A stretch of 64,000 nt of DNA from a virus. The stretch is from the IMG/VR virus record IMGVR_UViG_3300045988_074170. One strand, given 5' to 3'. Position 1 is the stretch's first letter; every line of letters begins with the position of its first letter. The position numbers and the translations under genes are program-made. Positions 4,610 through 32,534 of this stretch are shown piece after piece. The notes below the pieces were generated by a model. That model was not told where the DNA came from, made no database searches, and saw only the letters and a program-made list of their open reading frames with translations.

Positions 4610-7600
4610 TTATAACGTCAAAGTAACGATATTCGACTCGAAACAGGCTCTCAGCGTGTTCACCTCTTTACGGTTGTCGTAGGAAAGGATACCATTGATG
4701 AGTATCAGGTTCGCTCTTCCGCACGATAACAGGGGTTCCAACTGTTCGTATTCCTGCTGGAATATCACAATTTCGATGAACTCGTAGTTCTCCTCTAATA
4801 TCAAACGACACATCGTATCCCCCTTGCGGGTCTTCTTAATCTCCATTTCAGCGATGAACCCAGCCAACACGACGTACCCGTTATTCGGCTTCACTTCCGT
4901 GTCGTGACACTCCTCAAGAGTAGCATATTCGTAGGCATCAGGGAACTCCCCAGCGAACCTGTCATATATTTTCTGGTAATCAAAGAACGCCAGTCCGGAT
5001 ACTTTCTTTTGTAGGAGTGCCCACCACCACGCGTCATTGGCGTGGAAGTCGGCTCCAACTAATACAGGGTCATCTTCCTTGACATTTCCCTTCGTTGTTC
5101 CGAGGAAGTGTACAAACAGGTCTATTCGTTCCTGGGGTTTCTTTACCCCCTCAAGACTGTCGAACGCTCCTGCCAATATCAAGTTTCTGATGATACGACT
5201 GTTCACTGCTGAACCCTTCCATTTATGTCGGGTGATAAAGTCGTCTAATGACCAATATTGACCGTTCTCTGTGCGTTCCTTTATAATCTGGGTTGCAGCC
5301 TTTTCTGCGACCTGTTTGACTCCTGTAATTGACCAATACAAGGCTTTCTCTTTGAAGTTGATAACAACATCGGTATCCGATATATTGATATCCACAGGAC
5401 GTACCGTACAGACTCCCGTTTTATTGATTTCCGCAATATAGCGTGAATAGTCAGACTCCATCGCATATTTAAACGCCACCGACCAATACTCAATAGGATA
5501 GTGAACCTTTATCCACTGAGAGATATAGCCTGTAATTGCATAGGCAGCAGCGTGGCTTCGGTTGAACAGGTACGTCGAAGCCTTATCAATAGCGTCCCAC
5601 ACCTTTTCGGAGTATTCCTGGGTGACGTTATAGTTGTCCCGATAGTAAGGAATAAACCGTTCTTTGTACTGCTGGAGAGCCTCGTATTTCTTCTTCACCA
5701 TCGCTTTACGAACGTCATCGGCTTCCACCAACGACAGCCCACCCAACTCACGACAGAGTTGCATGATTTGTTCCTGATAGGCAAATACTCCATACGTGTT
5801 ATTCAGTATCTTGTCCGTTCCGGTGAAATACTCAACCTCCTTCTGACCCTCTTTACGGGAGACGTACTCGTTATGGAAGTTGTTCTCCATTGCTCCTGGG
5901 CGATACAATGAAATAGCAGCGATAAGGTCTTCAATATTGTCTGGCTTCATCTGACGACAATAACCTGTCAATCCGGAACTACCAAAGTGGAAGTTATCCT
6001 CGTTCCAACCATTCTTGAAATACCTGTACACCTCTGGGTCATCCAACGGCACACTGAAGATGTCTAAATCCACACCCTCGTGCTCCTTCACCAGCCGAAC
6101 CATGTCCTGGAACTTGTCGAACTGTTTCACACCCAGCACGTCCTCTTTTAGGAAGCCAGCAGCATCCATCTCACCACCTTCCCACTCGGTTACATACTCC
6201 TCGCCATTCTTACGAATAGGAACCCAATGAAACATATCGTGTTCCTCTGGGAATACCATCATCGCACAGGCATGAATTGACTGAGCCTTTGGTGCGGGCA
6301 TTATCAGCATCACTTCATTGATGAGGTCGGAATGTTCAACGACAAAGTTCTTCACTCGTGAATGAGCACAGGCTATCTTGAACAGGTCTTCAGGCTTCCT
6401 GTCCTTGACGTCAAACACTTTCATCATTTCGTTCGTTTCCTGGAAGTCCAACCCGTACACACGAGCCATATCCTTGATGGCTGCTCGTAACTGTAATGCG
6501 CTGTAAGTTCCCACGGAACACACCTGTTTCCAGCCGTACCGTTCTTCCATGTATTTCTTCACACGGGGACGGTCTTCACCAGGATAGTCGCAGTCAATAT
6601 CAGGGAGTGATACCTTAACACGTCCTGCGTTCAAGAAACGCTCAAAGAGTAGGTCGTATCGCATTGGGTCTAACTTGGTAATCCCCAACAGGTAGGAGAC
6701 AAGACAACCACCAGCCGAACCACGACTGATACCCGTCATTATACCGTTACGATGGCACCAGTTGATAATGTCCCAAGTAATTAGGAAGTAGTCAATTGCT
6801 TCCCCTAACTTTATAACACCCACCTCTCGGTCTATTCGTTCCATAATGACCTTTTCACCCCAATCCTCAATGAGGTCTGGGTGACGCTCAAGACCGTCGG
6901 CTATAAGAGACCAAAAGAGGTCTTCATTTGTTTCGAACTGTTTTGCCTCTTCCTTTGTCATCTTATAGTGAGGCAAGTGTCTCTTCTTTACGTCGATGAC
7001 AAAGGTTATCGCCTCAGCAATGTTTTCGAGGAATTCCAACCCTTCCATGAAACGGCTGTACACGTCCATGAACCCTTCTTCGGTATCCGGAAACATTTGA
7101 GCCAACTCAACAAACAGTTGGTCGTTCGATTTAAAGTATTGATTATCGCTCTCGTAGGCAGTTGTTCCACCAATACTATGTAGGCGAGGTCTGATACAAC
7201 TGTACTCCTCGTCAAGATACCACGCATCAACCGACGGAACGGGTAACAGGTTCTTGTCCTTGAAGAATTTCTTCAGGTTCGTCAGATACCATTCGTCACG
7301 GTTATCATCTACATATTCGCATGGGTCTAACTGATAAACGGCAGCGTCTATATGCAAGTCTTTCAACTTGTCGTAATCCGTTGTCTTCGGGTCAAGAAAC
7401 ATAATCAAATCATCGTTGTTAGTGGTGATTTTATTGAAATCCTCAAGACCGATGTACTTCGGATTGTCACAGTTGATGAACTTGTTTATAGTAAGGAGGT
7501 CTCGCCAACCCTTGTCGTTCCTTGCGTACACCTTAACAGTGAAGCGGAAATCCCGAGGCTGGTCATATACCACACACTCCATACCAATCACGCTCTTGAT

Positions 7601-8110
7601 GTCGTTCTTCTGGCATTCCGCTTGGAACTTCAACGCTCCGGCAAGTGAATTCTTTTCACAGATACCCAACGTCTTCACTCCAAGAAACTTTGCCTTCTTA
7701 CACCAGTCGGCATACGTTCCCGTCCCGGACATCATTTCATATTGACCATGAACTCCCAAGAATACAGGGGTTTCAATTTCCTGTTTCGCCTGACCGATAT
7801 ATTTCAGCCGTGTGAGTTTCACGTCATTCTCTTTACCTTTGGCGAGCATATAATACACTCCTCCAAAACTGAATGCGTAGAAGTCACATGATGTTTCGAC
7901 GGATTCCTCTCCCGAGCCTTTACGCTTCGGGTCGGCAGGAATACCAACAAAGTTGAACCCGTCATCAAACAGTGCACCGTCATACGCTGGCTGATACAAT
8001 TCAAAGGTCTTCCCTCCTATCTCGACCACATAGTCAGAAATAGGAGCGAAGTCCATTAAATTCTTCTCAAGATATTCTTTGAATTTATCCATTGATTTTC
8101 TGCTTAACAA
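4610..8110 (-). CDS. dnaE: DNA polymerase III alpha subunit (DnaE-type, N-terminal PHP domain)
   Basis: 1166-aa ORF. PHP-like start FLGVHGQYEMMSGTGTYADWCKKAKFLGVKTLGICEKNSLAG. Contains GISRGSAGGCLVSYLLGITKLDP and PDIDCDY, which match the polymerase palm signatures of DnaE. Length is typical of DnaE. Confidence 0.9.
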   Translation of the reverse strand: MLSRKSMDKFKEYLEKNLMDFAPISDYVVEIGGKTFELYQPAYDGALFDDGFNFVGIPADPKRKGSGEESVETSCDFYAFSFGGVYYMLAKGKENDVKLTRLKYIGQAKQEIETPVFLGVHGQYEMMSGTGTYADWCKKAKFLGVKTLGICEKNSLAGALKFQAECQKNDIKSVIGMECVVYDQPRDFRFTVKVYARNDKGWRDLLTINKFINCDNPKYIGLEDFNKITTNNDDLIMFLDPKTTDYDKLKDLHIDAAVYQLDPCEYVDDNRDEWYLTNLKKFFKDKNLLPVPSVDAWYLDEEYSCIRPRLHSIGGTTAYESDNQYFKSNDQLFVELAQMFPDTEEGFMDVYSRFMEGLEFLENIAEAITFVIDVKKRHLPHYKMTKEEAKQFETNEDLFWSLIADGLERHPDLIEDWGEKVIMERIDREVGVIKLGEAIDYFLITWDIINWCHRNGIMTGISRGSAGGCLVSYLLGITKLDPMRYDLLFERFLNAGRVKVSLPDIDCDYPGEDRPRVKKYMEERYGWKQVCSVGTYSALQLRAAIKDMARVYGLDFQETNEMMKVFDVKDRKPEDLFKIACAHSRVKNFVVEHSDLINEVMLIMPAPKAQSIHACAMMVFPEEHDMFHWVPIRKNGEEYVTEWEGGEMDAAGFLKEDVLGVKQFDKFQDMVRLVKEHEGVDLDIFSVPLDDPEVYRYFKNGWNEDNFHFGSSGLTGYCRQMKPDNIEDLIAAISLYRPGAMENNFHNEYVSRKEGQKEVEYFTGTDKILNNTYGVFAYQEQIMQLCRELGGLSLVEADDVRKAMVKKKYEALQQYKERFIPYYRDNYNVTQEYSEKVWDAIDKASTYLFNRSHAAAYAITGYISQWIKVHYPIEYWSVAFKYAMESDYSRYIAEINKTGVCTVRPVDINISDTDVVINFKEKALYWSITGVKQVAEKAATQIIKERTENGQYWSLDDFITRHKWKGSAVNSRIIRNLILAGAFDSLEGVKKPQERIDLFVHFLGTTKGNVKEDDPVLVGADFHANDAWWWALLQKKVSGLAFFDYQKIYDRFAGEFPDAYEYATLEECHDTEVKPNNGYVVLAGFIAEMEIKKTRKGDTMCRLILEENYEFIEIVIFQQEYEQLEPLLSCGRANLILINGILSYDNRKEVNTLRACFESNIVTLTL

Positions 8111-8732
8111 GTTCCGTTATATCGTCACCATCCTTACAACCCAACGACAGGAAGTATTGAGCAAACTTCTCGCTGACATGGTCATTCAATTCATAGGAGT
8201 CCGAATGATAATCACAGAAGTATATCTGAACTTCTTTACCTGTCGCCTCGGCAACCTTGAAGATAGCCTCAGCCTCACAGTCGAAACGCAATGAGCCAAA
8301 CACGATATCGCACATAAGAGCGTCTTCTTCAGACATCTTTGCCCAACTGTTCGTAACAGCGTTTGCCGTCCAACGTGCCCATACGTCTTCTCCAGCCAAT
8401 GACTTGAGATATTCGCCTGTACGCCGTAACAGTTCACGACCCTCAACCCGTACCGAGTCAAGAATATTAGGAGACTCTTCTTGAGGCTTGAACGGTAACA
8501 AGATGTCGCTGCTCAACTGTTTCCACTTCGCATACGCTTCACCCGTACAGTCAATCTTCTTTGATTCCCCTGTAAAGATGTTCATCAACGTCTGGCGAAT
8601 TCCTTCACTGAAATCTCCCATAATCATGGGTCGTTCTTCACACGCAGCACCAACCATAAGTGCTTCTGCTTGGTACGATTTACCGGAGCCAATAACCCCT
8701 ACCAAGCCATATATCTTTCCTTTAAGGCTCAT
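8085..8732 (-). CDS. P-loop NTPase, deoxynucleoside-monophosphate-kinase-like
   Basis: 215-aa ORF with Walker A GVIGSGKS near the N-terminus. Lies in the nucleotide-metabolism cluster. Substrate unknown. Confidence 0.45.
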   Translation of the reverse strand: MSLKGKIYGLVGVIGSGKSYQAEALMVGAACEERPMIMGDFSEGIRQTLMNIFTGESKKIDCTGEAYAKWKQLSSDILLPFKPQEESPNILDSVRVEGRELLRRTGEYLKSLAGEDVWARWTANAVTNSWAKMSEEDALMCDIVFGSLRFDCEAEAIFKVAEATGKEVQIYFCDYHSDSYELNDHVSEKFAQYFLSLGCKDGDDITELVKQKING

Positions 8733-9261
8733 ATTGATTCATGAATTTTTGAATGCTCTTGAAGAGTTTCCAGCCGTCCGTGTACTTCTCCAACAGTTGT
8801 TCGCAGTTTGTGATACAAGTCAATAACTTCTTGGACGTGTTTCCCAGAGCCTGTTCGCTCTTACAGAATATCCATAAGTCCAAATAATCACAGGTCTTGA
8901 AAAGACGGTACTGGAGGTCAGTCATTGTCTTCTTAATTTCTTCATCGGAATACGGCAACAGGTTCACGTCGCCATAACAGATTTCGTATTCAATGATATC
9001 CCATGCCGCAGCCGTGTTCTCATTGAATTTCTTTACGCACGCATTGAGGTCGCCTGTAACACTTTCCACGTAGTCGTGGAGTAACACCTTGTCAAACACG
9101 TTGATGTCGTAAGCAACGTCCTCTTCTGAGGCAAACCAACGAAATAACATGCCTACCACCAACCCATGCTCCAAGAGGTTGTACCCCCTGTGATGGGGGG
9201 TATTAGGCAACCTCTGGATGTCTTTCATCCCTAACAGGATGTCAATCTTCTTGAAATTCAT
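8722..9261 (-). CDS. HD-domain phosphohydrolase (nucleotidase/dNTPase-like)
   Basis: 179-aa ORF with H...HD...D metal-binding motifs (LLEHGLVVG, VLLHDYVESVTGD). Confidence 0.6.
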   Translation of the reverse strand: MNFKKIDILLGMKDIQRLPNTPHHRGYNLLEHGLVVGMLFRWFASEEDVAYDINVFDKVLLHDYVESVTGDLNACVKKFNENTAAAWDIIEYEICYGDVNLLPYSDEEIKKTMTDLQYRLFKTCDYLDLWIFCKSEQALGNTSKKLLTCITNCEQLLEKYTDGWKLFKSIQKFMNQYEP

Positions 9262-9293
9262 AACTAAATTGTCTTTATTTTAGTGGATAATTC

Positions 9294-10412
9294 TTATCCG
9301 ATGAACAGTTCGTTCAGTAACGGGTTCCGGAACTCTACCAACTGTTTTGTCCAATAACGGAAGATAACCTTTGCCCAGTCAGAGAACATCTCATCTTCAA
9401 ACTTTTCAATATCCGCACGCAATAACTCGAAGTCCTGTTCTGTACGGTTTTCACTGTTACGACAGTTTTCTTCGAACTGGCTCAACTGAGCGATAAGCGC
9501 ATCGAACTCCTCTAAAGTTTTAAACGTCGTCTTATAGGAAAAGTTTACTCCGGAAGGATACGAATTTGGGTCTCTTTTAGCGATTTCTTCAGCCAACGGA
9601 ATGAAGTCCTTATAGACATGAAGATTGTCTGCCTTGTGGTAATATTTCCCGACAGGCACGCCCACTATCGCTGCGACGTACTCCTGCATCAATGTAAAGT
9701 TGAACACGTTCACCGCACTGAACCCCCAGATAAGGTCATTCGAACGGATATCCACGTAACAGTTCATCTTTCCATTCACTATCATGAAGTGGATTGAACG
9801 GGTACACGGTGTATCCTTTGTGAGGAGCAATGGAGCCTTTTCCCCGTCCTCTTCATTCTGATTGAAGTTGTCAGAGATAGGGTCGTGAATTGTGATAACC
9901 GCTTCACGGGTATCGATGTCCTGCTTGAACTTTTCAATGACGAACCGTAATTGGTCAGTCACGTTCTGGTACAGTCCGGGAGCCTTCAATTTTGAATAAC
10001 GACCGTTTTCGTCTGCTTTACCGTTCTTATACTGTCGCGGAAGTAACTTTCCGGACAATGTTACCATCGAATCAAAATTGTCCCCGTAACGACGTATTCT
10101 GGGTCCATATCCCGCTCTCATGAACTTCCCATCATCTGAAAAGTTTACAAGGTTCTTCACGTAGGAAGCAGGCATCTCAAGACTGTTATCCCCACGAGCC
10201 AACCACAGGGACTCAATCCACCCCAATGTTTTGTTCCATTTACGCTCCGGAACACGAACATAGCGGTCGGTCGGATTAGTTATCTCAATGAGGACGGCTC
10301 CAGGGAACTCACGACATTCGAACCCTCTTCGGGTAACGTCAATCCCTTTATCCATCAATTCCTTACAAAGTAGCACCAGCGCACTACTCAAATTTTCTGC
10401 TTGAAAATACAT
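9294..10412 (-). CDS. Thymidylate-synthase-fold enzyme, candidate dUMP/dCMP hydroxymethylase
   Basis: 372 aa. TPCTRSIHF resembles the catalytic PCH..QF motif. RSNDLIWGFSAVNVFNF resembles RS.D..LG.PFNIASY. It is roughly 100 aa longer than canonical ThyA. Confidence 0.7.
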   Translation of the reverse strand: MYFQAENLSSALVLLCKELMDKGIDVTRRGFECREFPGAVLIEITNPTDRYVRVPERKWNKTLGWIESLWLARGDNSLEMPASYVKNLVNFSDDGKFMRAGYGPRIRRYGDNFDSMVTLSGKLLPRQYKNGKADENGRYSKLKAPGLYQNVTDQLRFVIEKFKQDIDTREAVITIHDPISDNFNQNEEDGEKAPLLLTKDTPCTRSIHFMIVNGKMNCYVDIRSNDLIWGFSAVNVFNFTLMQEYVAAIVGVPVGKYYHKADNLHVYKDFIPLAEEIAKRDPNSYPSGVNFSYKTTFKTLEEFDALIAQLSQFEENCRNSENRTEQDFELLRADIEKFEDEMFSDWAKVIFRYWTKQLVEFRNPLLNELFIG

Positions 10413-10426
10413 AAGTCTTTCTTGAT

Positions 10427-11461
10427 TTAATCGATTAATAATTCTCCTGGCTTGGGCAACTTAGCATTCCACTTCGGGGGGAATACGAACTCAATCTTCT
10501 TCGGACTCTTTTCGTAGGTGTGCTTGATACGTTCATTTCTACCTTTGTTGAAAGACGCTCCTAATCCCTTTGCAAACTTCGATGTTTCACAGAAACAGTT
10601 CTGAAGATTTGTAAGAGTAGGAACAGGCTCCCACGGTAACGGGTTCCACTTCATACCTGTCTTTTCGCAGAAGTCACCCATCAGCCTTTCAAAGTTGTCG
10701 TGAACCCACTTGATAGTGCCCACATAGTCATAACGCTTTCCGGACGCTCCGTCAAATGTCCAACCGATACCTTTCAGCGACCCTGGACCAGTGATGACAA
10801 AATCGTTTTCCGAAAAGTTAAACAGGGGTGAATAATTCAGGTCAATGCAATATTGCTGAGCCGTGAAGTCCCCGTAGATTTTCATATTCCTGAAAACCCA
10901 ATACAAGTCCTCAAAGGTCTTCGCCTCTAAGAAGTCATACAAGTGTCCGTTCTGAAAGATTTCATCTTCGAAGATACGAAAGTGGGCACGATGCTTGCTC
11001 ATCCCTGTAATATGTTTATATTCGGGATATTGATAGAAGAAGCAGTTCACGATGTAGGCATTACCATATATCGTGTCTCCGCCATCAACAACCTTGTCAA
11101 GAAACTTCGCTATGTTTTCCAAGCCTGTTTCGTAGGTGATGTCCCCGAACTCCTTTTCCAACAAATCCCACGTTTCGTTCTTATTGAAATGCTTGAAAAG
11201 CAATATGCGAAAGAACATATCCTCTGGTTCATACTGTTTGCCATTGTAAATTACACGGCTCAACAGGTATTGGCTGACCCTATCCAAGCATCTATAAACA
11301 TTGGTGAACTTGAATCCCCGAAGTATTTCATCGTCTGTCCATGGTCCAACCTGTCCATTGTACTTTTTCCAGAAAATGTTTTGTCTTTCGCATATCCAAT
11401 ACAAAAACCAATTAAATGTTTCTAATGGAACTGGCTTAAACGATTTTATATCTTTTCCCAT
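10427..11461 (-). CDS. aGPT-Pplase-like protein (alpha-glutamyl/putrescinyl-thymine pyrophosphorylase family, DNA base hypermodification)
   Basis: 344 aa. The N-terminal signature WTDDEILRGFKFTNVYRCLDRVSQYL matches my recollection of the family motif (W.DP.L..YRF.N.YR..DRVSQYLI). Not verified by HMM. Confidence 0.5.
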   Translation of the reverse strand: MGKDIKSFKPVPLETFNWFLYWICERQNIFWKKYNGQVGPWTDDEILRGFKFTNVYRCLDRVSQYLLSRVIYNGKQYEPEDMFFRILLFKHFNKNETWDLLEKEFGDITYETGLENIAKFLDKVVDGGDTIYGNAYIVNCFFYQYPEYKHITGMSKHRAHFRIFEDEIFQNGHLYDFLEAKTFEDLYWVFRNMKIYGDFTAQQYCIDLNYSPLFNFSENDFVITGPGSLKGIGWTFDGASGKRYDYVGTIKWVHDNFERLMGDFCEKTGMKWNPLPWEPVPTLTNLQNCFCETSKFAKGLGASFNKGRNERIKHTYEKSPKKIEFVFPPKWNAKLPKPGELLID

Positions 11462-12230
11462 TCGTTAATTCTCTTGATTTTATAAATTTACATAAAGATT
11501 TCCGGCACACCCCTAAAGATTCTTTAGCAATTCCAATTGAATCAAAAGTCCTCAAAATTTCCCCTGAGTCAGAAATTTCAATCACTCTTTTAGAACGTTC
11601 CCGTTTAAAATCTTCAGAATGATGCTTACCATAAAAAGGATTCTTTTCTCCTAATTTTGATTTAGAAAGATTTAACTTGTGAGTTTCAGAAAATTTCCTT
11701 CCCTTCCTTGCTAAAGACATTTTCAAACGAACCTCTACAGAGGCTTTCTTTCCTAAATGTGCTTTAGAAATACGCTTTCGACCCTCTTCGGTTAAATAAC
11801 ACTTTCCTCTTCTACTTTCCGCAGATTTTCTTATTGATTCTTTTGATGGATGATAACCCTTTCGAGCTAAAGACATATTTCTACGACCTTCTTCTGAAAC
11901 TTTCCAAGACGCACCCAATGTGCCTTCACCACCATCCGTCGTATTGTACCCGTTGCGTCGGGTGTCGTACTTCTGAATGAAGTGTCTCTCAAGGAAGTCA
12001 AGCTTCGCTTTAAGAGCCTGTAAAGAGGAAGCCTCAACCGATATGACTTCCTCTATTGTGAAGTTCTTGGAACCGTACTTTCGAATCGCTCTATGAAACT
12101 TGAGAGCGGAACCGTTGTTAGCGGAAACAACATGCTGGCGCCACCGTGCCTCAATCGACCTAACAGTTTGCCCAAAATACGGCTTTCCATTCTTTAGGCA
12201 AGTGACGCAATATATTATCCCGCGCTCCAT
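11436..12230 (-). CDS. GIY-YIG homing endonuclease (free-standing, Seg/I-TevI-like, NUMOD3-type repeats)
   Basis: GIIYCVTC...GKPYFGQT is the GIY-YIG motif; FHRAIRKYG and YNTTDGG follow. Repeated S.E.R.K.S.A..GK modules are present. Overlaps both neighbouring genes. Confidence 0.9.
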   Translation of the reverse strand: MERGIIYCVTCLKNGKPYFGQTVRSIEARWRQHVVSANNGSALKFHRAIRKYGSKNFTIEEVISVEASSLQALKAKLDFLERHFIQKYDTRRNGYNTTDGGEGTLGASWKVSEEGRRNMSLARKGYHPSKESIRKSAESRRGKCYLTEEGRKRISKAHLGKKASVEVRLKMSLARKGRKFSETHKLNLSKSKLGEKNPFYGKHHSEDFKRERSKRVIEISDSGEILRTFDSIGIAKESLGVCRKSLCKFIKSRELTNGKRYKIV

Positions 12231-12967
12231 TATTTACCTTTCTCAAACGTTTCAAAAGAGTTTCTTTCAATGTAGTCCGACGCTTCACAGAAAGCCACGA
12301 ACTCTTCACATAGTTCTGACAGCCCAAAGAAATTGAAAATATGAACACCCAAGTCCCAGACCGGAGCGTCATACGGTTGGTCGTGAAGAACCACACAACC
12401 GCCAGCCTCATTCACCTCTTCTCCCTCTCTTTGAGCCTTTTCGAAGTCGTGCATAAAGGTTCTGTGCTTTCGCCACATGCAATCTCCCTTAGGAGACTCG
12501 CCAGACCTGTATGCTATCCGAGCACAATACTCATCCCATTGGTCGTCACGGTAATCATACCTGACATGGAGAATGTTCGTAAACTCACTCTCTCCGCATA
12601 AATCCAAGGGACGCAATCGCCATGATACAGTTGTTCCTGCACCATCAATCAAAACTCCATGCCCTGCCTTAGACGTTTCCTTCAAGAAGTAGGATAGACC
12701 CTCAGCCTTGCACAGTCGCGACGTCATACTGTCGTAACCTTGCCAGCGTCGGATACCGCCATTCTCATAGAATTTCCCAACGAAAACCATATTGAAGTCC
12801 TCGGAGTAAACCCCGACTTCCTTTTCCTTTCCGTCAAGTGTCTTAAACTTGTATGGGCGGAGTTTCATACCTAATGATTCGAAGAACTCGAGGAAGAGGT
12901 AAACCCTTGTAGATTTACCGCTCCCCGAGATGCCTTTAACCAATACTATGGATTCCCCGTCAACCAT
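12230..12967 (-). CDS. P-loop kinase, candidate 5-hmdU DNA kinase
   Basis: 245 aa with Walker A GISGSGKST at residues 12-20. It is the neighbour of the aGPT-Pplase-like gene, separated only by the homing endonuclease. The assignment rests on context. Confidence 0.4.
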   Translation of the reverse strand: MVDGESIVLVKGISGSGKSTRVYLFLEFFESLGMKLRPYKFKTLDGKEKEVGVYSEDFNMVFVGKFYENGGIRRWQGYDSMTSRLCKAEGLSYFLKETSKAGHGVLIDGAGTTVSWRLRPLDLCGESEFTNILHVRYDYRDDQWDEYCARIAYRSGESPKGDCMWRKHRTFMHDFEKAQREGEEVNEAGGCVVLHDQPYDAPVWDLGVHIFNFFGLSELCEEFVAFCEASDYIERNSFETFEKGK

Positions 12968-13687
12968 TTACTTCTTCTTTGGAGTTTTCTTTGCGGGTGC
13001 AGGTTTGGCGTCCTCAGCCAGTTCCAACGCTGTTACACGTTTCTTGATAGGCTTGTCGTCACCGAACTTGACCATACACTTTTCTTTTCCGTCTCCGGAC
13101 TTGTACAGGCGAGTGATTTCACCAACAGCGTCCTCGCCTTTCAGGATAACTTTCGAACCTACTTTCAGTCCCGGAATTTCTTCCGATTCTTCGAGGTTCT
13201 GACGTTTTGTTTCACGAGGAGTCTTGTCGGCTTTCGCTGACTTCTTTTCCTTCATAGACTTGTCTGATTTAGACGGAGTCTTGCGGTTTTTCTGACGTTC
13301 CTCGTACTCTGCCTCAGCCTTTGCCAAGCGTTCTTCCTCTTCCGGAGTCAGTTGTTCTTCTGACTGATAGGTAGAGTTGCGTTTGTTCTGACGTTTCATT
13401 GCTGCTTCGGGTGAACCGTCTTCAGGGTCGGGGTCTTCAGCAGCCTCTTCTTTCGCAGCTTTCTTAGGAGCAGCCTTTTTGTCAGCTTTCTTTTCAGCGA
13501 CTTTCTTGGCTGGAGCTTTCTTAGGAGCTTCCTCTTCTTGAGCGGTTTCGCCACCTAATTTGTCAAGGAACTCTTGAGCTACCTTAACTTCCAATTCACT
13601 TGAATTTTCATCATTGATGATTTCTTCGAGCTTTTCAGCATCGAACTTTCTGTACTTCATCCGAAGTGCTAATGCATTACTTGCCAT
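12968..13687 (-). CDS. Lys/Ala/Pro-rich (histone-H1-like low complexity) protein with small C-terminal beta domain
   Basis: 239 aa. Contains KKAPAKKVAEKKADKKAAPKKAAKEE and ends with PAPAKKTPKKK. C-terminal region is LKVGSKVILKGEDAVGEITRLYKSGDGKEKCMVKFGD. Confidence 0.5.
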   Translation of the reverse strand: MASNALALRMKYRKFDAEKLEEIINDENSSELEVKVAQEFLDKLGGETAQEEEAPKKAPAKKVAEKKADKKAAPKKAAKEEAAEDPDPEDGSPEAAMKRQNKRNSTYQSEEQLTPEEEERLAKAEAEYEERQKNRKTPSKSDKSMKEKKSAKADKTPRETKRQNLEESEEIPGLKVGSKVILKGEDAVGEITRLYKSGDGKEKCMVKFGDDKPIKKRVTALELAEDAKPAPAKKTPKKK

Positions 13688-13750
13688 AATCGTTTTTACT
13701 TTTAATTATTAAAATTGTTTTTCTGTGATGTTTTATCACTTATCTCGCTA

Positions 13751-13758
13751 CAAATATA
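13751..13758 (-). promoter_or_regulatory. -7 promoter box (TATATTTG)
   Basis: Plus-strand caaatata reads TATATTTG on the minus strand, 64 nt upstream of the ATG at 13687. Confidence 0.4.
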
Positions 13759-13805
13759 ACTGGAAATTTTCGAAAAGGTTTAATTTTCTCCCCGAAAAAT
13801 CGAAA

Positions 13806-14003
13806 TTATTTTTTGCCGGAATGACCAAATCCACCCGCACCTCTCTCAGTGTCAGTGAGTTCTTCGACTGAAGAAACTTCGACAACTTCCTCGACTTTTG
13901 CATACGGAGCAAAGACGATTTGGGCAATTCTGTCACCATTCTCGATTGTTTGTGGTTCTGTCGACAGGTTAATCAACGGAACACCTACTTCCCCACGATA
14001 ATC
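13806..14003 (-). CDS. dut: dUTPase exon 2
   Basis: Encodes [12 protein letters not shown]...GDRIAQIVF...[12 protein letters not shown], covering the second half of dUTPase motif III plus motifs IV and V. It is in the same frame as exon 1. Confidence 0.85.
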
Positions 14004-14873
14004 CATTTAATTTTGGAGATTGTTAATCTAACAGGCTCTTTATCCTGCTATTTCTTTGCTTTATTTTGTTATATGCAAAGTTCAGACTATATCTTCACTT
14101 TCTTTTGAAAGGCAGGACACTCGTGTCAGCATTACTGTCCTCAACCTTACTTGTTTGGACTCGGCTGTTAGTCGTTGAACCTTCAAGAACATTACTGTTC
14201 ATGCTTGGCTGCTGATTGCCCACTTCTGGGTTTTCCAGCAATTCACCCTGTTTTAAGACGCCAATTATTCTGCCTGTTTTATTGTCTCTAATAATTGTCT
14301 TTTCAAAATTATGAATTGTCGTATGCTCTCCGCGAGTTAAAACTTCAAGATTTTCTAATCGATTGTCAGTCTTATCTTCATTTATATGATGAACATCGTA
14401 ACAATCTTTCAAAACTATCCAGCCACATATATTTTCAAACAGTTCTTTAGAAAACTTGTCATAGTTTCTTTCAATGATTAATCTGTGTTTCAATATATAA
14501 GTTGCCTTCCCTCTATCTCGAATTTTACCACCTTTAGGATGTCCAGGAACATTTTCCATTATATAACCTGCTGAATTTATCTTTTCATCATGCTTATAGG
14601 AACTATTCAACTCCCCTGTCAATCCAAACTGATGGTTCCCCTCACCCGTCATATATCTTGAACGTAAAATCTTTCCACATTCTTTTGAGCATGAAACTCC
14701 ATGAATTTGACGTTTAAGTCTTGACGGCTTTACCCACATTTTAACTCCACAAATTGAACATTGACAATTTGGTTCTCTATCAAATTTTCCCATACCATTT
14801 ATATTTATCGGCACAAAGTTAGTCAACTTTAATAAAGAACCATAGACTCTTATCAAGCAGTCATTAAAAGTCC
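14004..14873 (-). mobile_element. Group I intron (870 nt) interrupting dUTPase motif III, carrying an HNH ORF
   Basis: The 5' exon ends in U (GAC GCU|) and the intron ends in G (AAAUUAAAUG|GAU). An R-like element GUUCAACGACUAACA lies at 14166-14180 and an S-like element AAGAUAUAGUCU at 14084-14095. Compare Tetrahymena GUUCACAGACUAAA and AAGAUAUAGUCG. P7 pairing GACUA/UAGUC is possible. Confidence 0.8.
14095..14793 (-). CDS. HNH homing endonuclease encoded inside the dut intron
   Basis: The HNH motif DVHHINEDKTDNRLENLEVLTRGEHTTIH and N-terminal Cys clusters (CQCSICG, CSKECG) are present. ATG at 14793 (MGKFDRE); the ORF track extends to a TTG at 14856. The 3' end overlaps the intron R and S core elements. 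Confidence 0.8.
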   Translation of the reverse strand: MGKFDREPNCQCSICGVKMWVKPSRLKRQIHGVSCSKECGKILRSRYMTGEGNHQFGLTGELNSSYKHDEKINSAGYIMENVPGHPKGGKIRDRGKATYILKHRLIIERNYDKFSKELFENICGWIVLKDCYDVHHINEDKTDNRLENLEVLTRGEHTTIHNFEKTIIRDNKTGRIIGVLKQGELLENPEVGNQQPSMNSNVLEGSTTNSRVQTSKVEDSNADTSVLPFKRK

Positions 14874-15125
14874 AGCGTCTATCGTTCCGGGAGCATTGAT
14901 TACGGTCAGACCCTGTTTAACAGCGCAACCGCTGCGAGGTCTAACCTGACCCTCGTACCCCTGTTCGATTTCCATGTACAAACCAGTAGGAATGATTTTA
15001 CGCTCCATAGGAGCCAACGTGATTGAACCCTCGGGAAGATAAGCACGCAAGTCCATACCCGAACTGTCTGGAGTTTTGTACTCCGGCAGAGCATTTGTGC
15101 TCTTGTTTACGATTTTTAATTTCAT
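14874..15125 (-). CDS. dut: dUTPase exon 1
   Basis: Carries SSGMDLRA (motif I), RPRSGCAVK (motif II) and GTIDA (first half of motif III). The unspliced frame stops 6 codons into the intron. Confidence 0.85.
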
Positions 15126-15655: not shown

Positions 15656-16366
15656 TTATTTCCATAAATATCCTCGATAAGGCAAACCATCCTCAAGTCT
15701 TTTCCTTAAAGTATGCCCATTCAATTTCAGTTCTCGTTTGATATCAATTATAGTATTCCATTCTTTAATAAATATTCCACCCTTCGAATATTGAAATACT
15801 TTTCTACAATTATTTTGATACCCAGGTTTTCCCGAATTCGCTTCTGATATTTTTCTTTTTGTTTCTTCTGAATGATGTTTTCCATATAATGGATGATTCT
15901 TTCCAGAAAGTTTATGATTTCCGAAATTCGAATTTAATTCCCCAATTCGTAATTTAGCAGCATCGCTCATTCTTTTCAAAGTCTCATCCGAAAATTTTCT
16001 ACCTTTCAAGGCTTTGCTGATTTTAGCAAGTGATTCTTCAGAAAGATTTACTAAACCATCCCCACCATCTGTCGAATTATACCCGTCAATCTTAGTGTTG
16101 AACCGCTTTATAAGCCTCATTTCAGCGTAGTCAAGTTTCCTCTTGAGAGCATCCTTCGTAGGAGCCTCCACGAACATCACCTCTTCGACCAGGAAGTTCT
16201 CCTCACCATACTTTCGTATGGCTCGGTGGAACTTGTGGTCGGAGCCTCGCTGAGAAGAACGAACATGCCGTCTCCAACGACTCCTTATAGAGAGCATCGT
16301 TTGCCCGAAGTACAGTTTCCCAGTGGGCAGACAGGTGACGCAATATATGAAGCCTTTCTGAATCAT
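15656..16366 (-). CDS. GIY-YIG homing endonuclease (free-standing)
   Basis: Contains GFIYCVTCLPTGKLYFGQT, FHRAIRKYG and YNSTDGG, plus NUMOD3-like repeats. Overlaps the primase stop by 4 nt. Confidence 0.9.
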   Translation of the reverse strand: MIQKGFIYCVTCLPTGKLYFGQTMLSIRSRWRRHVRSSQRGSDHKFHRAIRKYGEENFLVEEVMFVEAPTKDALKRKLDYAEMRLIKRFNTKIDGYNSTDGGDGLVNLSEESLAKISKALKGRKFSDETLKRMSDAAKLRIGELNSNFGNHKLSGKNHPLYGKHHSEETKRKISEANSGKPGYQNNCRKVFQYSKGGIFIKEWNTIIDIKRELKLNGHTLRKRLEDGLPYRGYLWK

Positions 16367-19058: not shown

Positions 19059-21158
19059 TTAAACTGCGTCAATTTTTATCATTACAGTGCTCTCTCGTAA
19101 CTTGTTAATCGCCATGAAAGAGGAAGACACGGTATCATCGTGCCCACTGATACTCTCAAGAGTTCCCTTATCGCTGCGGAACGCAACCGAGTTGAACTCC
19201 CCAAACATCTGGTCAATCTTAGCAGCCGTGTCAGGATGATACGGGCACTTGATTACACCTCTCTCAAATAACGCTGCAAGTGATGCCCACCCTGTTCTCA
19301 GGTCTTTCTTATTCCCGGAAGTCGTCGTGAACGGTGTAATATTCTTGATACCCATCTGAACGCACATATCCGCCAATATACTTTGGAAGCCGTTGTTTTC
19401 CACGACTATCTCGTTTGGCTTGAACACCCTGTTCAGTAGGTCAATCTTCTGTATCTGTTCATTATGAGATAATCCCTTTTCCCGGAATATGTATAGGAGA
19501 TAATAATTCCCCTGGACATCCTTCCCCCAAACTGTATAACAAGTATAGTCGGCTCCCACATTTCCTGAGACAGCGAAGTCACAACCCATGACCACCCTCT
19601 GTAACTTGATAGGAAACGACTCTATGTTATCAACGAGCCTGACGTTTTCCATCCCGATTGTACTCCTCTTTAATATCTCCCAAGGGAAGATTGTACTGTC
19701 GTCGGAAATAGGTACGACCAAATACTCACGAGAGAATACGAGCGTCCCCAGAGACGCTTTTTCCTCCATAAGTTTTGCCCACGTAAAACGGTCAGGAGCC
19801 AACAGGCGACCGTCCGGGAATATGGCTGGGTACTCAAAGACACGGAACTTTGGGTCTTTCTTTAATTCGGCATACAAGTCCTCTTGCTGATACGGTGTAC
19901 CATCAACGATGTTATATCCATACGGCTCAACGATAGGCGTGATAGCACCTTTAAACAGGTCTCTCAACTTCTCACGCTGTTCCAATGAATAGATACTACT
20001 CTCATCTGGTAAGTCATCGCTGACCGCTGCCCCCACGTGAAGACCACGAATAAACCCGTCCTTTCCACGGAGGTGAAGTTTCGTTCCGTTCTCACATTCA
20101 ATACTTGTCGCTGCCAGTGAAGCCTTTCCAGTAGGGTTCAGTTTTGCTGCCAAAGCCTCATTCACACGGATTTCCTCAACCACCTTGTCAATGTGCTGTT
20201 TACCCAGTTTTTCCGTGTTCGTAATAATACAGGTTTCCTGGCGATTTTTATTGTCAGGAATATCAGGTCGCATAAACGTCGGACGTCGGTAACTGTATAA
20301 TCTCCACAGCGGGAACGCCATACAGAACTCGTAGGAATTGTGAACGACTGTACCATCCTCTAACTGAAACAGATGGTCACCATCGCACATAAACCCGTAA
20401 TAAGACTCTTCCCCAATAGGTTCAACCGTTATATTCCCACGCTCGAATACAGGCTTATCGTAAGAGAACACCCTGTACCCCTGGAACCGTCTTTGCTTCT
20501 TGACAGGATATTTCAGGAATTGTCCCATTTCTATTTCGACATACTTCTTCCGCTTCGTGTCAAAGAGGCACATCGTGTGCGCTCGGTTCACGGCATACGG
20601 CATACCATTCTCCTGCTCAACCCTGAACATCTGGGCACGACCGATATGTCGTGTCAGAACCTTTCGGGGAGTGAAGTCTAATCCCATCACTTCCATTCCA
20701 GGATAGATGTCCTCTATATTCTTCACGGAAAAGTCAGCCATCAGCACCCGTGTACCTCTCGCAAAGCATTTACCGTGAGAACGAGCAGCAAGATATGCGC
20801 TGTTCGGATAAAGTTGCACCATGTTTCCCCATTCAAGATTTCTCCAACCCTGACGGAAATTAGGAAGCATAGTTGTCTTGAAATAGTTGTACGACTGAAC
20901 TTTCAGCGTCTCATCCATTGACTCTTCCAATTGGTCAATGTAGTTGAGCCGTTCAGTTTCAAGCGTGGTATTTAGGGAAAGAACATTATTCGTCTGAATG
21001 AAGATTTCCGATAACAGTGCATCGACGTCACCACCATAGCCACCAACCAATTGATTGATAGCCACAGGTGGTAACGACTCAAGCACGTTGAACGCAGTAG
21101 AGAACACCGTGTCCAACTGTTTGTACGACAACTTTAAATCTTCATTAAAATGTATCAT
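19059..21158 (-). CDS. terL: Terminase large subunit (precursor containing a mini-intein)
   Basis: 699-aa ORF. Joining the exteins restores the P-loop AARSHGK|S. C-terminal RNaseH-like nuclease region (MGCDFAVSG..., GHDDTVSS). Confidence 0.8.
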   Translation of the reverse strand: MIHFNEDLKLSYKQLDTVFSTAFNVLESLPPVAINQLVGGYGGDVDALLSEIFIQTNNVLSLNTTLETERLNYIDQLEESMDETLKVQSYNYFKTTMLPNFRQGWRNLEWGNMVQLYPNSAYLAARSHGKCFARGTRVLMADFSVKNIEDIYPGMEVMGLDFTPRKVLTRHIGRAQMFRVEQENGMPYAVNRAHTMCLFDTKRKKYVEIEMGQFLKYPVKKQRRFQGYRVFSYDKPVFERGNITVEPIGEESYYGFMCDGDHLFQLEDGTVVHNSYEFCMAFPLWRLYSYRRPTFMRPDIPDNKNRQETCIITNTEKLGKQHIDKVVEEIRVNEALAAKLNPTGKASLAATSIECENGTKLHLRGKDGFIRGLHVGAAVSDDLPDESSIYSLEQREKLRDLFKGAITPIVEPYGYNIVDGTPYQQEDLYAELKKDPKFRVFEYPAIFPDGRLLAPDRFTWAKLMEEKASLGTLVFSREYLVVPISDDSTIFPWEILKRSTIGMENVRLVDNIESFPIKLQRVVMGCDFAVSGNVGADYTCYTVWGKDVQGNYYLLYIFREKGLSHNEQIQKIDLLNRVFKPNEIVVENNGFQSILADMCVQMGIKNITPFTTTSGNKKDLRTGWASLAALFERGVIKCPYHPDTAAKIDQMFGEFNSVAFRSDKGTLESISGHDDTVSSSFMAINKLRESTVMIKIDAV
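20337..20768 (-). mobile_element. Mini-intein (144 aa, no endonuclease domain) in the TerL Walker A motif
   Basis: Starts CFARGTRVLMADF (block A, Cys1) and ends DGTVVHN followed by the +1 Ser. Boundaries checked at codon level: TGC at 20768-20766, AAT at 20339-20337. Confidence 0.8.
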
Positions 21159-21846: not shown

Positions 21847-22551
21847 CTATTTTAATTTGTAACTAAATTCAAATCCATCAACACTTATAATCTTCCCCAA
21901 ACAACAGCGATTTATTCTACCAATTCCAATAGAAGTTTCTAAAGCAGCCTGAGTTAAACTATCAAAAGTTTTCAGCAACTTTCCATCTAAATATTGGTAA
22001 ACTGCTTTCCTTCCAACTCCAGTCCTACCTTTGAGAGAATCAGAAATATGTTTCCTCTGTTCAAGAGTTCTCTTCTTTCCCCGAAGTTTTTCTGCTCTAT
22101 TTTCTATTTCTATTGTGGACTGTTTTCTTCCTCTTAATGGGGAAATACGCTTTTCTATTTCTTCCTCAGATTGTTTCTTGCCTCTATTTCCTGAGCCCAT
22201 TTTATACAGAATTTCTTCAGTAAACTCATACCCACTTCGACCACCCGAAGTTGAATTATAACCATTCTTATAGGAATCGTAAAAAGAAATCCAATATTTT
22301 TCTCTTTCATCCAACCATTTCACGCATTCAACTAAATTTTGAAATGGTTTCTTTTCAAGGCATTCAACAGAAAAAGAATCTTTACCGTATTTTCGAATTG
22401 CTCGATAAAACTTACAGTCCTTTATTCGTTTCTTTGTTTTAAATGCCGTCCGGATATGCCGATTAAATCTTCGATGATATTCATGAGTAACCTGACCAAT
22501 ATAAACTTTATTAGTCTCAGAGCAAGTCACCATATAAATATATCCAGTCAT
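21847..22551 (-). CDS. GIY-YIG homing endonuclease (free-standing)
   Basis: Contains GYIYMVTCSETNKVYIGQV, FYRAIRKYG and YNSTSGG, plus NUMOD3-like repeats. Confidence 0.9.
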   Translation of the reverse strand: MTGYIYMVTCSETNKVYIGQVTHEYHRRFNRHIRTAFKTKKRIKDCKFYRAIRKYGKDSFSVECLEKKPFQNLVECVKWLDEREKYWISFYDSYKNGYNSTSGGRSGYEFTEEILYKMGSGNRGKKQSEEEIEKRISPLRGRKQSTIEIENRAEKLRGKKRTLEQRKHISDSLKGRTGVGRKAVYQYLDGKLLKTFDSLTQAALETSIGIGRINRCCLGKIISVDGFEFSYKLK

Positions 22552-28879: not shown

Positions 28880-29338
28880 TTATTCAATGGTTATCCAAAC
28901 ATTCCTCCCAGCCTTAATCGCTTCACGGACAAGTTTCTTGACCCTGTCAGTGACGTTGAACTGGTTCCTCAGTTGTTCCCTTCCAGGAACCCTGTCGCCT
29001 GTCAAAATGCATCCTTCGGTATGTCCTGGATTGGCTCCTGCGTGAATAAGTATCCCCAAGAAGTGAGGCACGTCTTCAAGAGCAGGATATTCTTTTCCGA
29101 ATTTCGGAGAATACCGATAGATAACTTTATAACGTCCTGGAGGAATACAGGTTTCTCCGTACACCTTTTCAGGACATTTGCAAGCAACTCCCCTTGGAGT
29201 ATTAGGACAGGTCTCCGGAAGTTTACGTTGGGTGTCTTCCAAAGTATCAGCTATCCTCAACCCATCACAATACAAAACTCCCATCGTGGCGGTTGAGGAA
29301 AATTCCTGACGAATAAGTTTCAATTCTAAATTATCCAT
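28880..29338 (-). CDS. Putative cell-wall hydrolase with YkuD-like H...GC motif (DUF5675-like)
   Basis: 152 aa. ILIHAGANPGHTEGCILTG resembles the L,D-transpeptidase-fold catalytic H/C signature. Adjacent to the spanin-like gene. Confidence 0.35.
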   Translation of the reverse strand: MDNLELKLIRQEFSSTATMGVLYCDGLRIADTLEDTQRKLPETCPNTPRGVACKCPEKVYGETCIPPGRYKVIYRYSPKFGKEYPALEDVPHFLGILIHAGANPGHTEGCILTGDRVPGREQLRNQFNVTDRVKKLVREAIKAGRNVWITIE

Positions 29339-29398
29339 ATCACTTTATCTTTATATTCAACAGCGTAAAAATACAGCAAATTTTCTCTTGAAACAAGT

Positions 29399-31488: not shown

Positions 31489-32273
31489 CCCTCCAATACT
31501 GTTTCAGTTACAGGTTGCAAAGCGTCTGTGACCACTGAAGCGACCTCACTCACTCCCGTCTGTATCATCGAAGGAAGTAACTTATCAAGCAACGATTTGT
31601 TATTCTTGTTAGATACTGCCTCCAGCGGAGCCAACGCTATCAACGTCAAATTATAATTCCAAATCATGTTTTTCGACAAGTCCTGAGAGAACTGTACCCC
31701 ACTCGGTGGAATAGCCACAAGATAACTTTCCCCGAGTGCCATGTTATAGAAGTACAAACGCAACGGTTTACCCTTATCGTCAAGACCCACACTCTTACTT
31801 GCCATAGCCTGTAATATCTTCATCACACCATAACCCGTCTTGACGTTCAGGTTAAAGTTCGAAAAGGCGAGTCCCGATATTGAACCGCTTTTCTTTGTAA
31901 TGTCGAACAGGTGGTATTTCCCAGCACTCACACTCTTACTTGAAGAGTTGATGCTCACATCTGGCTTTGGATTTATCAGGATTTTGAATTGACGACCGAA
32001 ACTTCCCTTAATGTTAATTTCCTGAGGCGAATAAGAAGGAGTCGACAATACTGTTACTCCAGCCATTGACTTCTTGATATTCGTTCGAGTAGGTTCGGTC
32101 TTTGAGATAGAATCCGGCATAATAGGGAATGTCAGATAATCTATCGTATTGTCATCACTATCCGCAAGTTCCAAAGCAACCATGTACCATTCGAAGTCGT
32201 TGGGATACAGGCTCGCAAGAGCCTGTCCCCCGATTGACTTCGCCATGTTCATAACTGTATCTAATGCAGACAT
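31479..32273 (-). CDS. Baseplate-module protein (unassigned)
   Basis: 264-aa co-oriented ORF. Confidence 0.5.
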   Translation of the reverse strand: MSALDTVMNMAKSIGGQALASLYPNDFEWYMVALELADSDDNTIDYLTFPIMPDSISKTEPTRTNIKKSMAGVTVLSTPSYSPQEINIKGSFGRQFKILINPKPDVSINSSSKSVSAGKYHLFDITKKSGSISGLAFSNFNLNVKTGYGVMKILQAMASKSVGLDDKGKPLRLYFYNMALGESYLVAIPPSGVQFSQDLSKNMIWNYNLTLIALAPLEAVSNKNNKSLLDKLLPSMIQTGVSEVASVVTDALQPVTETVLEGWL

Positions 32274-32528: not shown

Positions 32529-32534
32529 AATCTC

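Follow-up and report, generated by a model that had tools for sequence, protein, structure and literature searches.

The 64,000-nucleotide DNA of IMG/VR virus record IMGVR_UViG_3300045988_074170 (the window, meaning the whole stretch analysed) is a segment of a tailed-phage genome, and its positions 8085 to 15125 hold a gene island that probably encodes a thymidine-replacement and DNA-level modification module of a gut Bacteroidota-type tailed phage. The type of pathway is already known, and we regard the window as carrying a transferase-less variant of it in a new phage group. The island includes a predicted deoxyuridine monophosphate (dUMP) hydroxymethylase with the thymidylate synthase (TS) fold, a homologue of a proven kinase of 5-hydroxymethyldeoxyuridine (5-hmdU) in DNA, and a member of the PF18723 protein family (Table 1). 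An initial annotation, made by reading this DNA without database searches, had described a run of six co-oriented open reading frames (ORFs). All six were recovered at their positions, with the quoted motifs in their translations, on the minus strand, which also bears almost every other gene of the window; GC skew is strongly negative.

The TS-fold enzyme is nearer to pyrimidine hydroxymethylases than to ThyA. Its best match among PDB sequences was the CMP 5-hydroxymethylase MilA (1.3e-18), ten orders of magnitude above the best thymidylate synthase (2.6e-8), and it scored 35-66 bits against the seven NCBIfam TS equivalog models, failing all of their cut-offs (108-427). The catalytic residue C203 as well as R169, R223, S224, D226, H265 and Y267 are invariant in an alignment with phage homologues and with E. 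coli ThyA. Residue N235 aligns with N177 of E. coli TS, which is the uracil-specifying residue and is an Asp in dCMP and CMP hydroxymethylases; MilA has Asp at this position. W80 and W83 of TS are replaced by the segment NFSDDG and the TS C-terminus is absent, a long helical C-terminal extension being found instead, and both features are common to the homologues of SPO1-like, M6-like and ViI-like phages. The fold and the approximately 100 amino acids in excess of ThyA, both noticed in the initial annotation, were confirmed, the extra length being due to this extension and to a clade-specific insert of ~35 residues. The nearest homologues in cultured phages belong to a Maribacter phage, SPO1-like Bacillus phages, M6-like Pseudomonas phages and ViI-like Ackermannviridae, with 30-33% identity for the first three groups (32% for a SPO1-like Bacillus phage hydroxymethylase) and 26% for a ViI-like protein; the type members of the SPO1-like, M6-like and ViI-like groups carry hmdU-derived DNA. 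Because the enzyme lies closer to pyrimidine hydroxymethylases than to ThyA and has the uracil-specifying Asn, it is predicted to be a probable dUMP hydroxymethylase, as had been proposed for this ThyA homologue.

The homologue of the Maribacter phage adjoins a beta-glucosyltransferase gene. In this phage (Colly_1, L013, positions 6300-11059), the closest hydroxymethylase homologue of a cultured phage has the uracil-type Asn, and genes for an epimerase and a UDP-glucose dehydrogenase lie next to it in addition to that for the beta-glucosyltransferase. This suggests that a marine Bacteroidota phage carries sugar-modified 5-hydroxymethyluracil (hmU).

It is very unlikely that the enzyme is an ordinary, though divergent, thymidylate synthase, in which case the DNA would contain canonical T and the kinase and PF18723 proteins would act on nucleotides or otherwise. 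The Cys, Arg, Asp, Asn, His and Tyr of the TS active site are all present, the homologues are annotated 'thymidylate synthase' in databases, and sequence alone is no proof of hydroxymethylase over synthase activity. Against such an identity stand the fact that no TS is as close to it as a proven hydroxymethylase, the scores far below the TS cut-offs, the loss of both tryptophans and of the TS C-terminus, and, in 46 of the related loci described below, the tight linkage to a homologue of the kinases of hmU in DNA. Compared with hydroxymethylases on one side and ThyA on the other, as the initial annotation had suggested doing, the enzyme groups with the hydroxymethylases. No other thymidylate synthase (ThyA or ThyX) was present in any ORF scanned in the window and its flanks.

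The second enzyme, seen initially as a P-loop kinase and possible 5-hmdU DNA kinase, matched the Pfam family PF18747 with 85.3 bits (cut-off 25) and was similar to ViI gp243 (YP_004327565) over residues 7-230, near its full length (BLASTP 1e-21). This ViI protein phosphorylates 5-hmdU in DNA to 5-phosphomethyl-dU (5-PmdU) in vitro (PMC8989533). The Walker A motif GISGSGKST (G12-x-S-x-S-G-K18-S19), D79, the DGAG motif and the arginines R117, R119, R150 and R154 are kept in at least 95% of 55 distinct sequences, and a phmmer search of PDB sequences gave nothing meaningful. The protein is therefore a homologue of a proven 5-hmdU DNA kinase and most likely has the predicted kinase activity; it is of the type referred to as HMUD2, or 'kinase 2'. 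A homing endonuclease ORF separates its gene from that of PF18723. In L002, L019 and further relatives this ORF is missing and the genes on either side of it abut, and since some near-identical genomes have it and others do not, we consider it a mobile insertion outside the pathway. In another related locus (L067:153-1835, plus strand), an HMUD2-type kinase located upstream of PF18723 is fused to a DNA methyltransferase-like N-terminus with an SPPY motif.

The third protein belongs to the PF18723 family (253 bits for a cut-off of 25), of which a word-indexed search recovered 3348 sequence clusters. It matched ViI gp160 (BLASTP 4e-21), and a 57-sequence profile of this protein aligned with LKO4_0014, the orthologue of M6 gp55 (hhalign probability 98.9%, E 2.5e-17), which itself matches PF18723 at 5e-56. 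The orthologue of M6 gp51 matches another family, PF18724, now named 'ADDT, amino acid:DNA transferase'. The counterpart of LKO4_0014 in the M6-like phage SN1 is annotated as aGPT-Pplase1, i.e. clade 1 of the alpha-glutamyl/putrescinyl-thymine pyrophosphorylases (PMC9476957), and ViI gp160 and the C-terminal half of SP10 gp186 are listed as 'aG/PT-PPlase1' (Lee et al. 2018, PMC5889632, Table 3). As family matches and published gene names agree, PF18723, which Pfam currently calls '5-hmdU DNA kinase, helical domain' (HMUDK_hel), corresponds to the renamed clade 1 and PF18724 to the renamed clade 2. Assignment to the aGPT-Pplases, made initially by recognition of a signature, is thus upheld for the family: the profile-HMM (hidden Markov model) search placed the protein in clade 1 and not in an unrelated family. 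The function that had been attached to it, substitution of the group on the phosphorylated base, belongs as an experimentally shown activity to clade 2, and its extension to the window protein, which has no significant match to that clade, is not supported. All demonstrated transferases are clade 2 proteins, namely M6 gp51, ViI gp247, PhiW-14 gp109, PaMx11 gp46 and the SH-Ab 15599 enzyme (PMC8989533, PMC13458397); in the case of ViI gp247, the purified protein by itself was able to transfer serine to DNA treated with kinase, and no function is given to ViI gp160 in the same study (PMC8989533).

An AlphaFold2 (AF2) model of the 344-residue PF18723 protein was all-alpha, with a pLDDT of 93. Searching PDB sequences with phmmer gave nothing meaningful, and the weak list of structural matches returned by Foldseek comprised helix-hairpin-helix (HhH) glycosylases and the PaMx11 gp46 transferase (8z2m). 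In 57 sequences, down to 39% identity, R26, D60, K156, Q203 and D207 were invariant, as was the motif C291-E292-x-x-K295. The Cys-Glu pair also occurs in ViI gp160 (FCELSK) and LKO4_0014 (LCEFDK). By eye, the corresponding segment NCFCETxK resembles the C-terminal Cys segment ETVLCKWK of the clade 2 M6 gp51 orthologue, both being located ~85% along their proteins.

The gene neighbourhood was compared in 75 related IMG/VR loci, surveyed with locally built HMMs; the counts are inflated by close relatives. In relatives down to ~40% identity, the gene order is HMUD2 kinase, PF18723, hydroxymethylase, HD and P-loop proteins (each missing in some) and the DNA polymerase DnaE. An HMUD2 kinase stands near PF18723 in 51 of the 75 loci, 46 of which also have the hydroxymethylase, and an HMUD1 kinase in a single one. 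A GT1 glycosyltransferase was found in seven loci, fused to PF18723 in two (L063:8462-10975 and L072), and a TET-associated glycosyltransferase (TAGT) in four, one of these together with an FkbM methyltransferase; the assignments to GT1, TAGT and FkbM held up in Pfam searches. In the relatives without HMUD2, the gene directly upstream of PF18723 encodes a GT1, a TAGT or an FkbM-type methyltransferase, and glycosyltransferase or methyltransferase genes lie beside PF18723 at L057:7947-9347, L062:9136-9993, L064:2555-3502, L088:9114-9974 and L074:4457-5146. Brevibacterium phage LuckyBarnes (L016, gp39/gp40) has a hydroxymethylase, two successive glycosyltransferases and PF18723, with no annotated kinase. 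These arrangements hint at glycosylated or methylated hmU DNA in the kinase-less relatives. Since the partner gene varies, PF18723 pairs with different hydroxymethyl-modifying enzymes, and the pattern is clear: PF18723 and the hydroxymethylase are constant and the hydroxyl-modifying partner is variable. The pairing or fusion of PF18723 with glycosyltransferases in kinase-less relatives further argues that its role is not specifically the displacement of phosphate.

A transferase or tailoring gene was then looked for in the window, its flanks and the related loci. Pfam scans detected no ADDT, pyridoxal phosphate (PLP), radical S-adenosylmethionine (rSAM), flavin adenine dinucleotide (FAD), amidoligase or GATase domain in any of the 74 ORFs of the window, in agreement with the initial reading, which had seen no PLP-dependent, rSAM or amidotransferase gene, and no window ORF matched PF18724 at E <= 0.01. 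The flanks were followed with exact-match DNA patterns through IMG/VR contigs, ~18.5 kb beyond the start and ~10-13 kb beyond the end, and these sequences of near-identical relatives also lacked any such gene. They encode SNF2 and UvrD helicases, RNase H, NAD ligase, an intein-bearing class II ribonucleotide reductase, an HD_4 protein and homing endonucleases on the start side, and PNK3P/HAD, HU, glucosaminidase, BACON and DUF2400 proteins on the other. Homologues of ADDT, PLP, rSAM and Nmad5 proteins were found in none of the 75 related loci, with a sensitivity limited by the use of one seed sequence per family. Because the only enzyme known to attach the final group is absent from the searched sequence, the finished base cannot be predicted, a point on which the initial annotation had come to the same view.

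The DUF2400/TIGR02757 protein (Pfam 1e-61; L102:7922-8683, minus strand; L098:10-774; L101:9211-9972), a family common in Bacteroidales chromosomes, is encoded ~6 kb beyond the right end of the window in close relatives. Its AF2 model (pLDDT 94) has an HhH-GPD DNA-glycosylase-like fold, with best matches to the queuine-salvage protein DUF2419 (E 5e-3), OGG1 and EndoIII. It was rejected as an evident transferase: 8z2m was not in the best 50 structural matches shown, and hhalign and BLASTP comparisons with PF18723 and ADDT were non-significant. It could act on modified bases.

From homology and from the gene order of M6-like and ViI-like phages, the following pathway can be proposed. The dUTPase, once its transcript is spliced (see below), would supply dUMP and remove dUTP, and the ThyA-fold enzyme would hydroxymethylate dUMP to 5-hmdUMP, without methylation. 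The HD nucleotidase would degrade competing dTMP or other deoxynucleoside monophosphates (dNMPs), and the P-loop protein together with the host NDP kinase would convert 5-hmdUMP to the triphosphate, which the adjacent DnaE polymerase would incorporate in place of T. The HMUD2 kinase, like ViI gp243, would then phosphorylate the hydroxymethyl group in DNA to give 5-PmdU, after which PF18723 may act on the same flipped-out base. Given its invariant Cys-Glu pair and the likeness of its Cys segment to that of clade 2, PF18723 is taken as a Cys-dependent enzyme, which would attack C6 and process 5-PmdU, either by swapping the phosphate for a small nucleophile or by reduction to thymine; the correspondence of its Cys to the catalytic Cys of clade 2 is a candidate match and not a confirmed one. 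As no known transferase or tailoring enzyme was detected, the mature base would be 5-PmdU, hmdU together with T, or some simple adduct that is left untailored.

A bolder view, which we rate as somewhat less likely than not, makes PF18723 the constant core partner of the hydroxymethylase, combined with exchangeable hydroxyl-modifying enzymes (an HMUD2 or HMUD1 kinase, a GT1 or TAGT glycosyltransferase, or an FkbM methyltransferase); in the phage clade of the window, the kinase and PF18723 would suffice without a known transferase, giving stable 5-PmdU, a new untailored adduct or thymine formed after replication. The conservation of a putative active site in PF18723 speaks for catalysis, whether by substitution or by reduction to T, and the partner swapping and fusions speak for a role common to hmU-modifying systems, either presentation of the base or a separate reaction on hmU DNA. 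Several observations weigh against the proposed pathway and its PF18723 step. No activity has been demonstrated for clade 1 to date; Nalpha-GlyT could be reconstituted without M6 gp55, and the kinase domain of SP10 was active when its fused PF18723 domain was missing (PMC8989533). Foldseek gave no significant match of the model to the PDB, the best TM-score listed, with 8z2m, being non-significant (0.37/0.43 over 320 columns, E 4.9), and the PF18723 profile aligned non-significantly with the clade 2 proteins LKO4_0010 (hhalign E 0.18) and ViI gp247 (E 0.36). The resemblance of the Cys segments, which hints at shared thiol chemistry, is a likeness by eye only. The 11 related loci that pair PF18723 with glycosyltransferases and have no kinase are a poor fit to a role involving a phosphate leaving group, and no dCMP deaminase was found in the searched sequence. 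In addition, the flanks are those of near-identical relatives, not of the window's own genome, and ~10 kb of the ~108-kb relatives lie outside the coverage.

Three rival roles of PF18723 can be set beside the one in the proposed pathway. It may be a non-catalytic, DNA-binding or base-flipping helical module that presents 5-hmU, the final mark being 5-phosphomethyl-dU or partly phosphorylated hmdU DNA. Its renaming by Pfam as a kinase helical domain is in line with such a module, as are its fusions to the kinase in SP10 gp186 (PMC5889632) and to GT1 in two loci, its variable neighbours (HMUD2, HMUD1, GT1 or TAGT) beside a constant hydroxymethylase, the dispensability of M6 gp55 in the published reconstitution (PMC8989533), and the lack of a transferase or tailoring gene in window, flanks and related loci. 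We nevertheless hold it to be rather unlikely, since the invariant Cys291-Glu292-x-x-Lys295 motif with R26, D60, K156 and D207 is active-site-like, enzymes of four unrelated folds would all have to depend on one adaptor, the kinase domain of SP10 is active by itself, and 5-PmdU is so far known only as an intermediate. The initial annotation had assumed that PF18723 acts like clade 2 and installs a small adduct on 5-PmdU, possibly a new untailored hypermodified thymidine. This appears rather doubtful in view of the absence of any demonstrated clade 1 activity, of the non-significant sequence and fold comparisons with clade 2 and of the pairing with glycosyltransferases in relatives. It agrees with the adjacent kinase gene, with the similar Cys motif and with the original prediction of both clades as pyrophosphorylases/transferases (Iyer et al. 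2013, as cited in PMC8989533); moreover, SP10, which has a PF18723 domain and no second aGPT-Pplase paralogue, still makes alpha-glutamylthymidine (PMC5889632, Table 3).

The remaining alternative, which we consider unlikely, is that PF18723 works as a reductase on replicated DNA and converts 5-PmdU or hmdU to thymine through a C6-thiol and an exocyclic methylene, which would leave T at kinase-targeted sites and hmdU elsewhere. PhiW-14, SP10, ViI and M6 convert part of their hmdU to T and all encode PF18723 (PMC5889632, Table 3; PMC8989533). SPO1-like phages keep hmdU; among 390 tblastn matches only six records were from Bacillus phages, which may or may not be SPO1-like. A clade 2 enzyme yields T with borohydride, so that the chemistry is feasible (PMC8989533), the invariant Cys-Glu pair would be suited to it, and it would explain why no transferase is needed. 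On the other hand, this all-alpha protein shows no evident domain for binding a reductant and no cofactor motif, making hmdU and reverting it to T would be wasteful unless partial, and in the glycosyltransferase-paired loci no kinase was detected that could supply the leaving group.

Table 1. Genes and other elements of the modification island and its borders (positions in the window).
Feature	Position	Strand	Evidence or remark
DnaE-type replicative DNA polymerase	4610-8110	-	Directly downstream of the island; context gene
P-loop protein, possible dNMP kinase for hmdUMP	8085-8732	-	Walker A GVIGSGKS; phrog_139 dNMP kinase 4.5e-6 (weak)
YfbR-like HD 5'-deoxynucleotidase, candidate dTMP/dNMP phosphohydrolase	8722-9261	-	PF12917 4e-14
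TS-fold pyrimidine hydroxymethylase, predicted dUMP hydroxymethylase	9294-10412	-	Pfam Thymidylat_synt (PF00303) 5e-17
PF18723 protein (HMUDK_hel, formerly aGPT-Pplase clade 1; ViI gp160/M6 gp55 family)	10427-11461	-	Pfam 4.6e-75
GIY-YIG/NUMOD3 homing endonuclease, free-standing	11436-12230	-	Pfam GIY-YIG and NUMOD3; phrog_314 3e-35
P-loop 5-hmdU DNA kinase homologue, HMUD2 type ('kinase 2')	12230-12967	-	PF18747 5.5e-24
K/E/A-rich protein, 239 aa	12968-13687	-	Directly upstream of the kinase gene; position conserved
dUTPase exon 2	13806-14003	-	DYRGEVG... to stop codon; Pfam dUTPase 2e-14, phrog_135 9e-26
Group I intron, 870 nt	14004-14873	-	Begins after U, ends in G; Rfam RF00028
dUTPase exon 1	14874-15125	-	Ends ...NAPGTIDA; Pfam dUTPase 1e-7, phrog_135 7e-27

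The other genes of the island would act on the nucleotide pool. The region 13806-15125 had been annotated as a dUTPase; the family stands, but the gene is not a single ORF, being split into two exons by a group I intron (Rfam RF00028 match at 14066-14315, 64.4 bits for a gathering score of 50, E 5e-14). The exon/intron junction was placed against the intact dUTPase of the relative L008 (GTIDSDYRG). Predicted splicing restores GTIDA|DYRGE and completes the dUTPase domain, exon 1 covering PF00692 positions 4-69 and exon 2 positions 71-129. An ORF for an HNH homing endonuclease lies inside the intron (14095-14856, minus strand; HNH_3 3e-8). The intron core (~14079-14259) has 83% nucleotide identity to the dUTPase intron region of crAssphage (BK010471.1), and as the phage is otherwise unrelated to crAssphage, this suggests that the intron moved between unrelated gut phages.

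The HD protein was rightly called a hydrolase: it exceeded the PF12917 cut-off (53 bits vs 25.9), scored 32 bits for a cut-off of 122 with the NCBIfam YfbR equivalog, and matched YfbR in the PDB (1.5e-5) and the HD protein that follows the hydroxymethylase in the M6-like phage LKO4 (BLASTP 5e-10). For the adjacent P-loop protein, which had been called a kinase, the Walker A motif is present and the match to a kinase family is weak. It had no Pfam, NCBIfam or PDB match and aligned weakly with a ViI-like dNMP kinase (hhalign E 0.007, probability 6%); counting the window and the related loci, 55 ORFs preserve it at this position. The K/E/A-rich protein had no match in Pfam, PHROG or NCBIfam. An ORF occupies the same position in L002 and L008, and the counterpart in L010 has a Rho_N match; the protein may bind DNA or RNA, and may lie outside the pathway.

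A Bacteroidota host of the phage, which the initial annotation had inferred, is well supported. The DnaE-type polymerase has ~40% identity to the DNA polymerase III alpha proteins of Tenacibaculum and Cellulophaga phages (tblastn) and 31-36% to polymerases of Chryseobacterium and Bacteroides phages; the corresponding genes of its relatives have PHP, DNA_pol3_alpha and related Pfam domains. The homologues of a 552-residue structural protein were confined to phages of Bacteroides, one phage of Chryseobacterium and a phage contig from human faeces, and BACON and Listeria-Bacteroides repeat domains are present in the window. The myovirus type given in the initial annotation is a tentative assignment: among the tail genes, Pfam detected Baseplate_J and tail-tube families and no sheath. 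A crAss-like identity, indicated by the first megablast match, was rejected: only the dUTPase intron region matches, and the polymerase and structural genes point to relatives among phages of Flavobacteriia and Bacteroides. The IMG/VR relatives of the window are on contigs of 92-113 kb. One contig, of 107.8 kb, has a 100% identical PF18723 protein but belongs to a different genome, since its DnaE has an intein that is absent from the window. At least two metagenome samples with an exact copy of PF18723 bear the label YEOH20, which we take to be that of a human gut study.

Selfish elements heavily colonise this phage clade. In the window, the large terminase subunit (19059-21158, minus strand) has a Hint (intein) insert; in close relatives, inteins occur in DnaE of L003, L004 and L017 (1489 residues compared with 1166 in the window) and in the class II ribonucleotide reductase of L095 and L097. 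In addition to the free-standing GIY-YIG endonuclease of the island (11436-12230), two others are encoded on the minus strand at 15656-16366 and 21847-22551; NUMOD3 accompanies the island ORF and that at 15656-16366, and the ORF at 21847-22551 matches NUMOD1 weakly. A fourth ORF with GIY-YIG and NUMOD3 lies within 28880-47619. Elsewhere, among portal, capsid and other structural genes, a 433-residue protein (51469-52770, minus strand) has a canonical NUDIX box (GHVDPGEDFETAALRELKEE). A run of ~9 C occurs at 63910-63925, near the right end of the window. IMG/VR contains no exact copy of the final 40 bases, although five contigs match the sequence located 200 bases before them; an assembly or variant boundary may lie here.

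Of the systems described so far, the island shares its local order (kinase, PF18723, hydroxymethylase, YfbR-like HD protein, DNA polymerase) with the M6/YuA-like Pseudomonas cluster, which comprises Pplase2 (gp51), PLP (gp52), rSAM (gp53), kinase (gp54), gp55, Nmad5, hydroxymethylase and HD genes. The PF18723 and HD proteins of the two are homologous, whereas the kinase is HMUD1 in M6 and HMUD2 in the window, and the ADDT, PLP, rSAM and Nmad5 genes are all missing in the latter. The pathway of the Salmonella phage ViI (Ackermannviridae) consists of a dUMP hydroxymethylase, the kinases gp67 and gp243, gp160, the transferase gp247 and the PLP decarboxylase gp226. The window has homologues of the hydroxymethylase, gp243 and gp160, and its nucleotide-pool genes adjoin the hydroxymethylase as in ViI-type phages, but it lacks a gp247-type transferase (PF18724), a PLP enzyme and an HMUD1-type kinase. 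The ViI genes are scattered and those of the window clustered, and the host phylum and the polymerase type (DnaE in the window) also differ. The Bacillus hmU phages SPO1, SP8 and CampHawk have a homologous hydroxymethylase and the same pool logic (dUTPase, nucleotidase, dNMP kinase); SPO1-type phages stop at hmdU, whereas the window adds a DNA kinase and PF18723. Finally, the glycosyltransferase-linked loci (LuckyBarnes, L057, L062-L064 and L088) have the same PF18723/hydroxymethylase pair with a GT1 or TET-associated glycosyltransferase as partner (fused in L063 and L072) in place of a kinase.

Thymidine hypermodification shields phage DNA from restriction enzymes, and its pathway has been worked out in a few phages of Proteobacteria and Bacillus, always with a clade 2 transferase. 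New with respect to the searchable literature are the occurrence of the pathway in a large clade of gut Bacteroidota-type phages, a minimal HMUD2-based cluster without clade 2 transferase or tailoring genes, and the alternation of kinase and glycosyltransferase beside PF18723. Earlier metavirome mining queried HMUD1-type kinases only, namely M6 gp54, ViI gp67 and PhiW-14 gp37 (PMC8989533), which may be why this clade was left undescribed. If our interpretation is true, the pathway reaches a large clade of ~100-kb phages found mainly in human gut metagenomes, and the stripped-down island offers a clean natural system in which to study the function of the widespread PF18723 family. Should PF18723 form thymine, it would be the long-sought enzyme by which hypermodifying phages turn hmdU into T, a conversion that the cited papers assign to no enzyme. 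Virome methods based on restriction, nanopore sequencing and, in some cases, amplification would, moreover, be biased by modified T in abundant gut phages.

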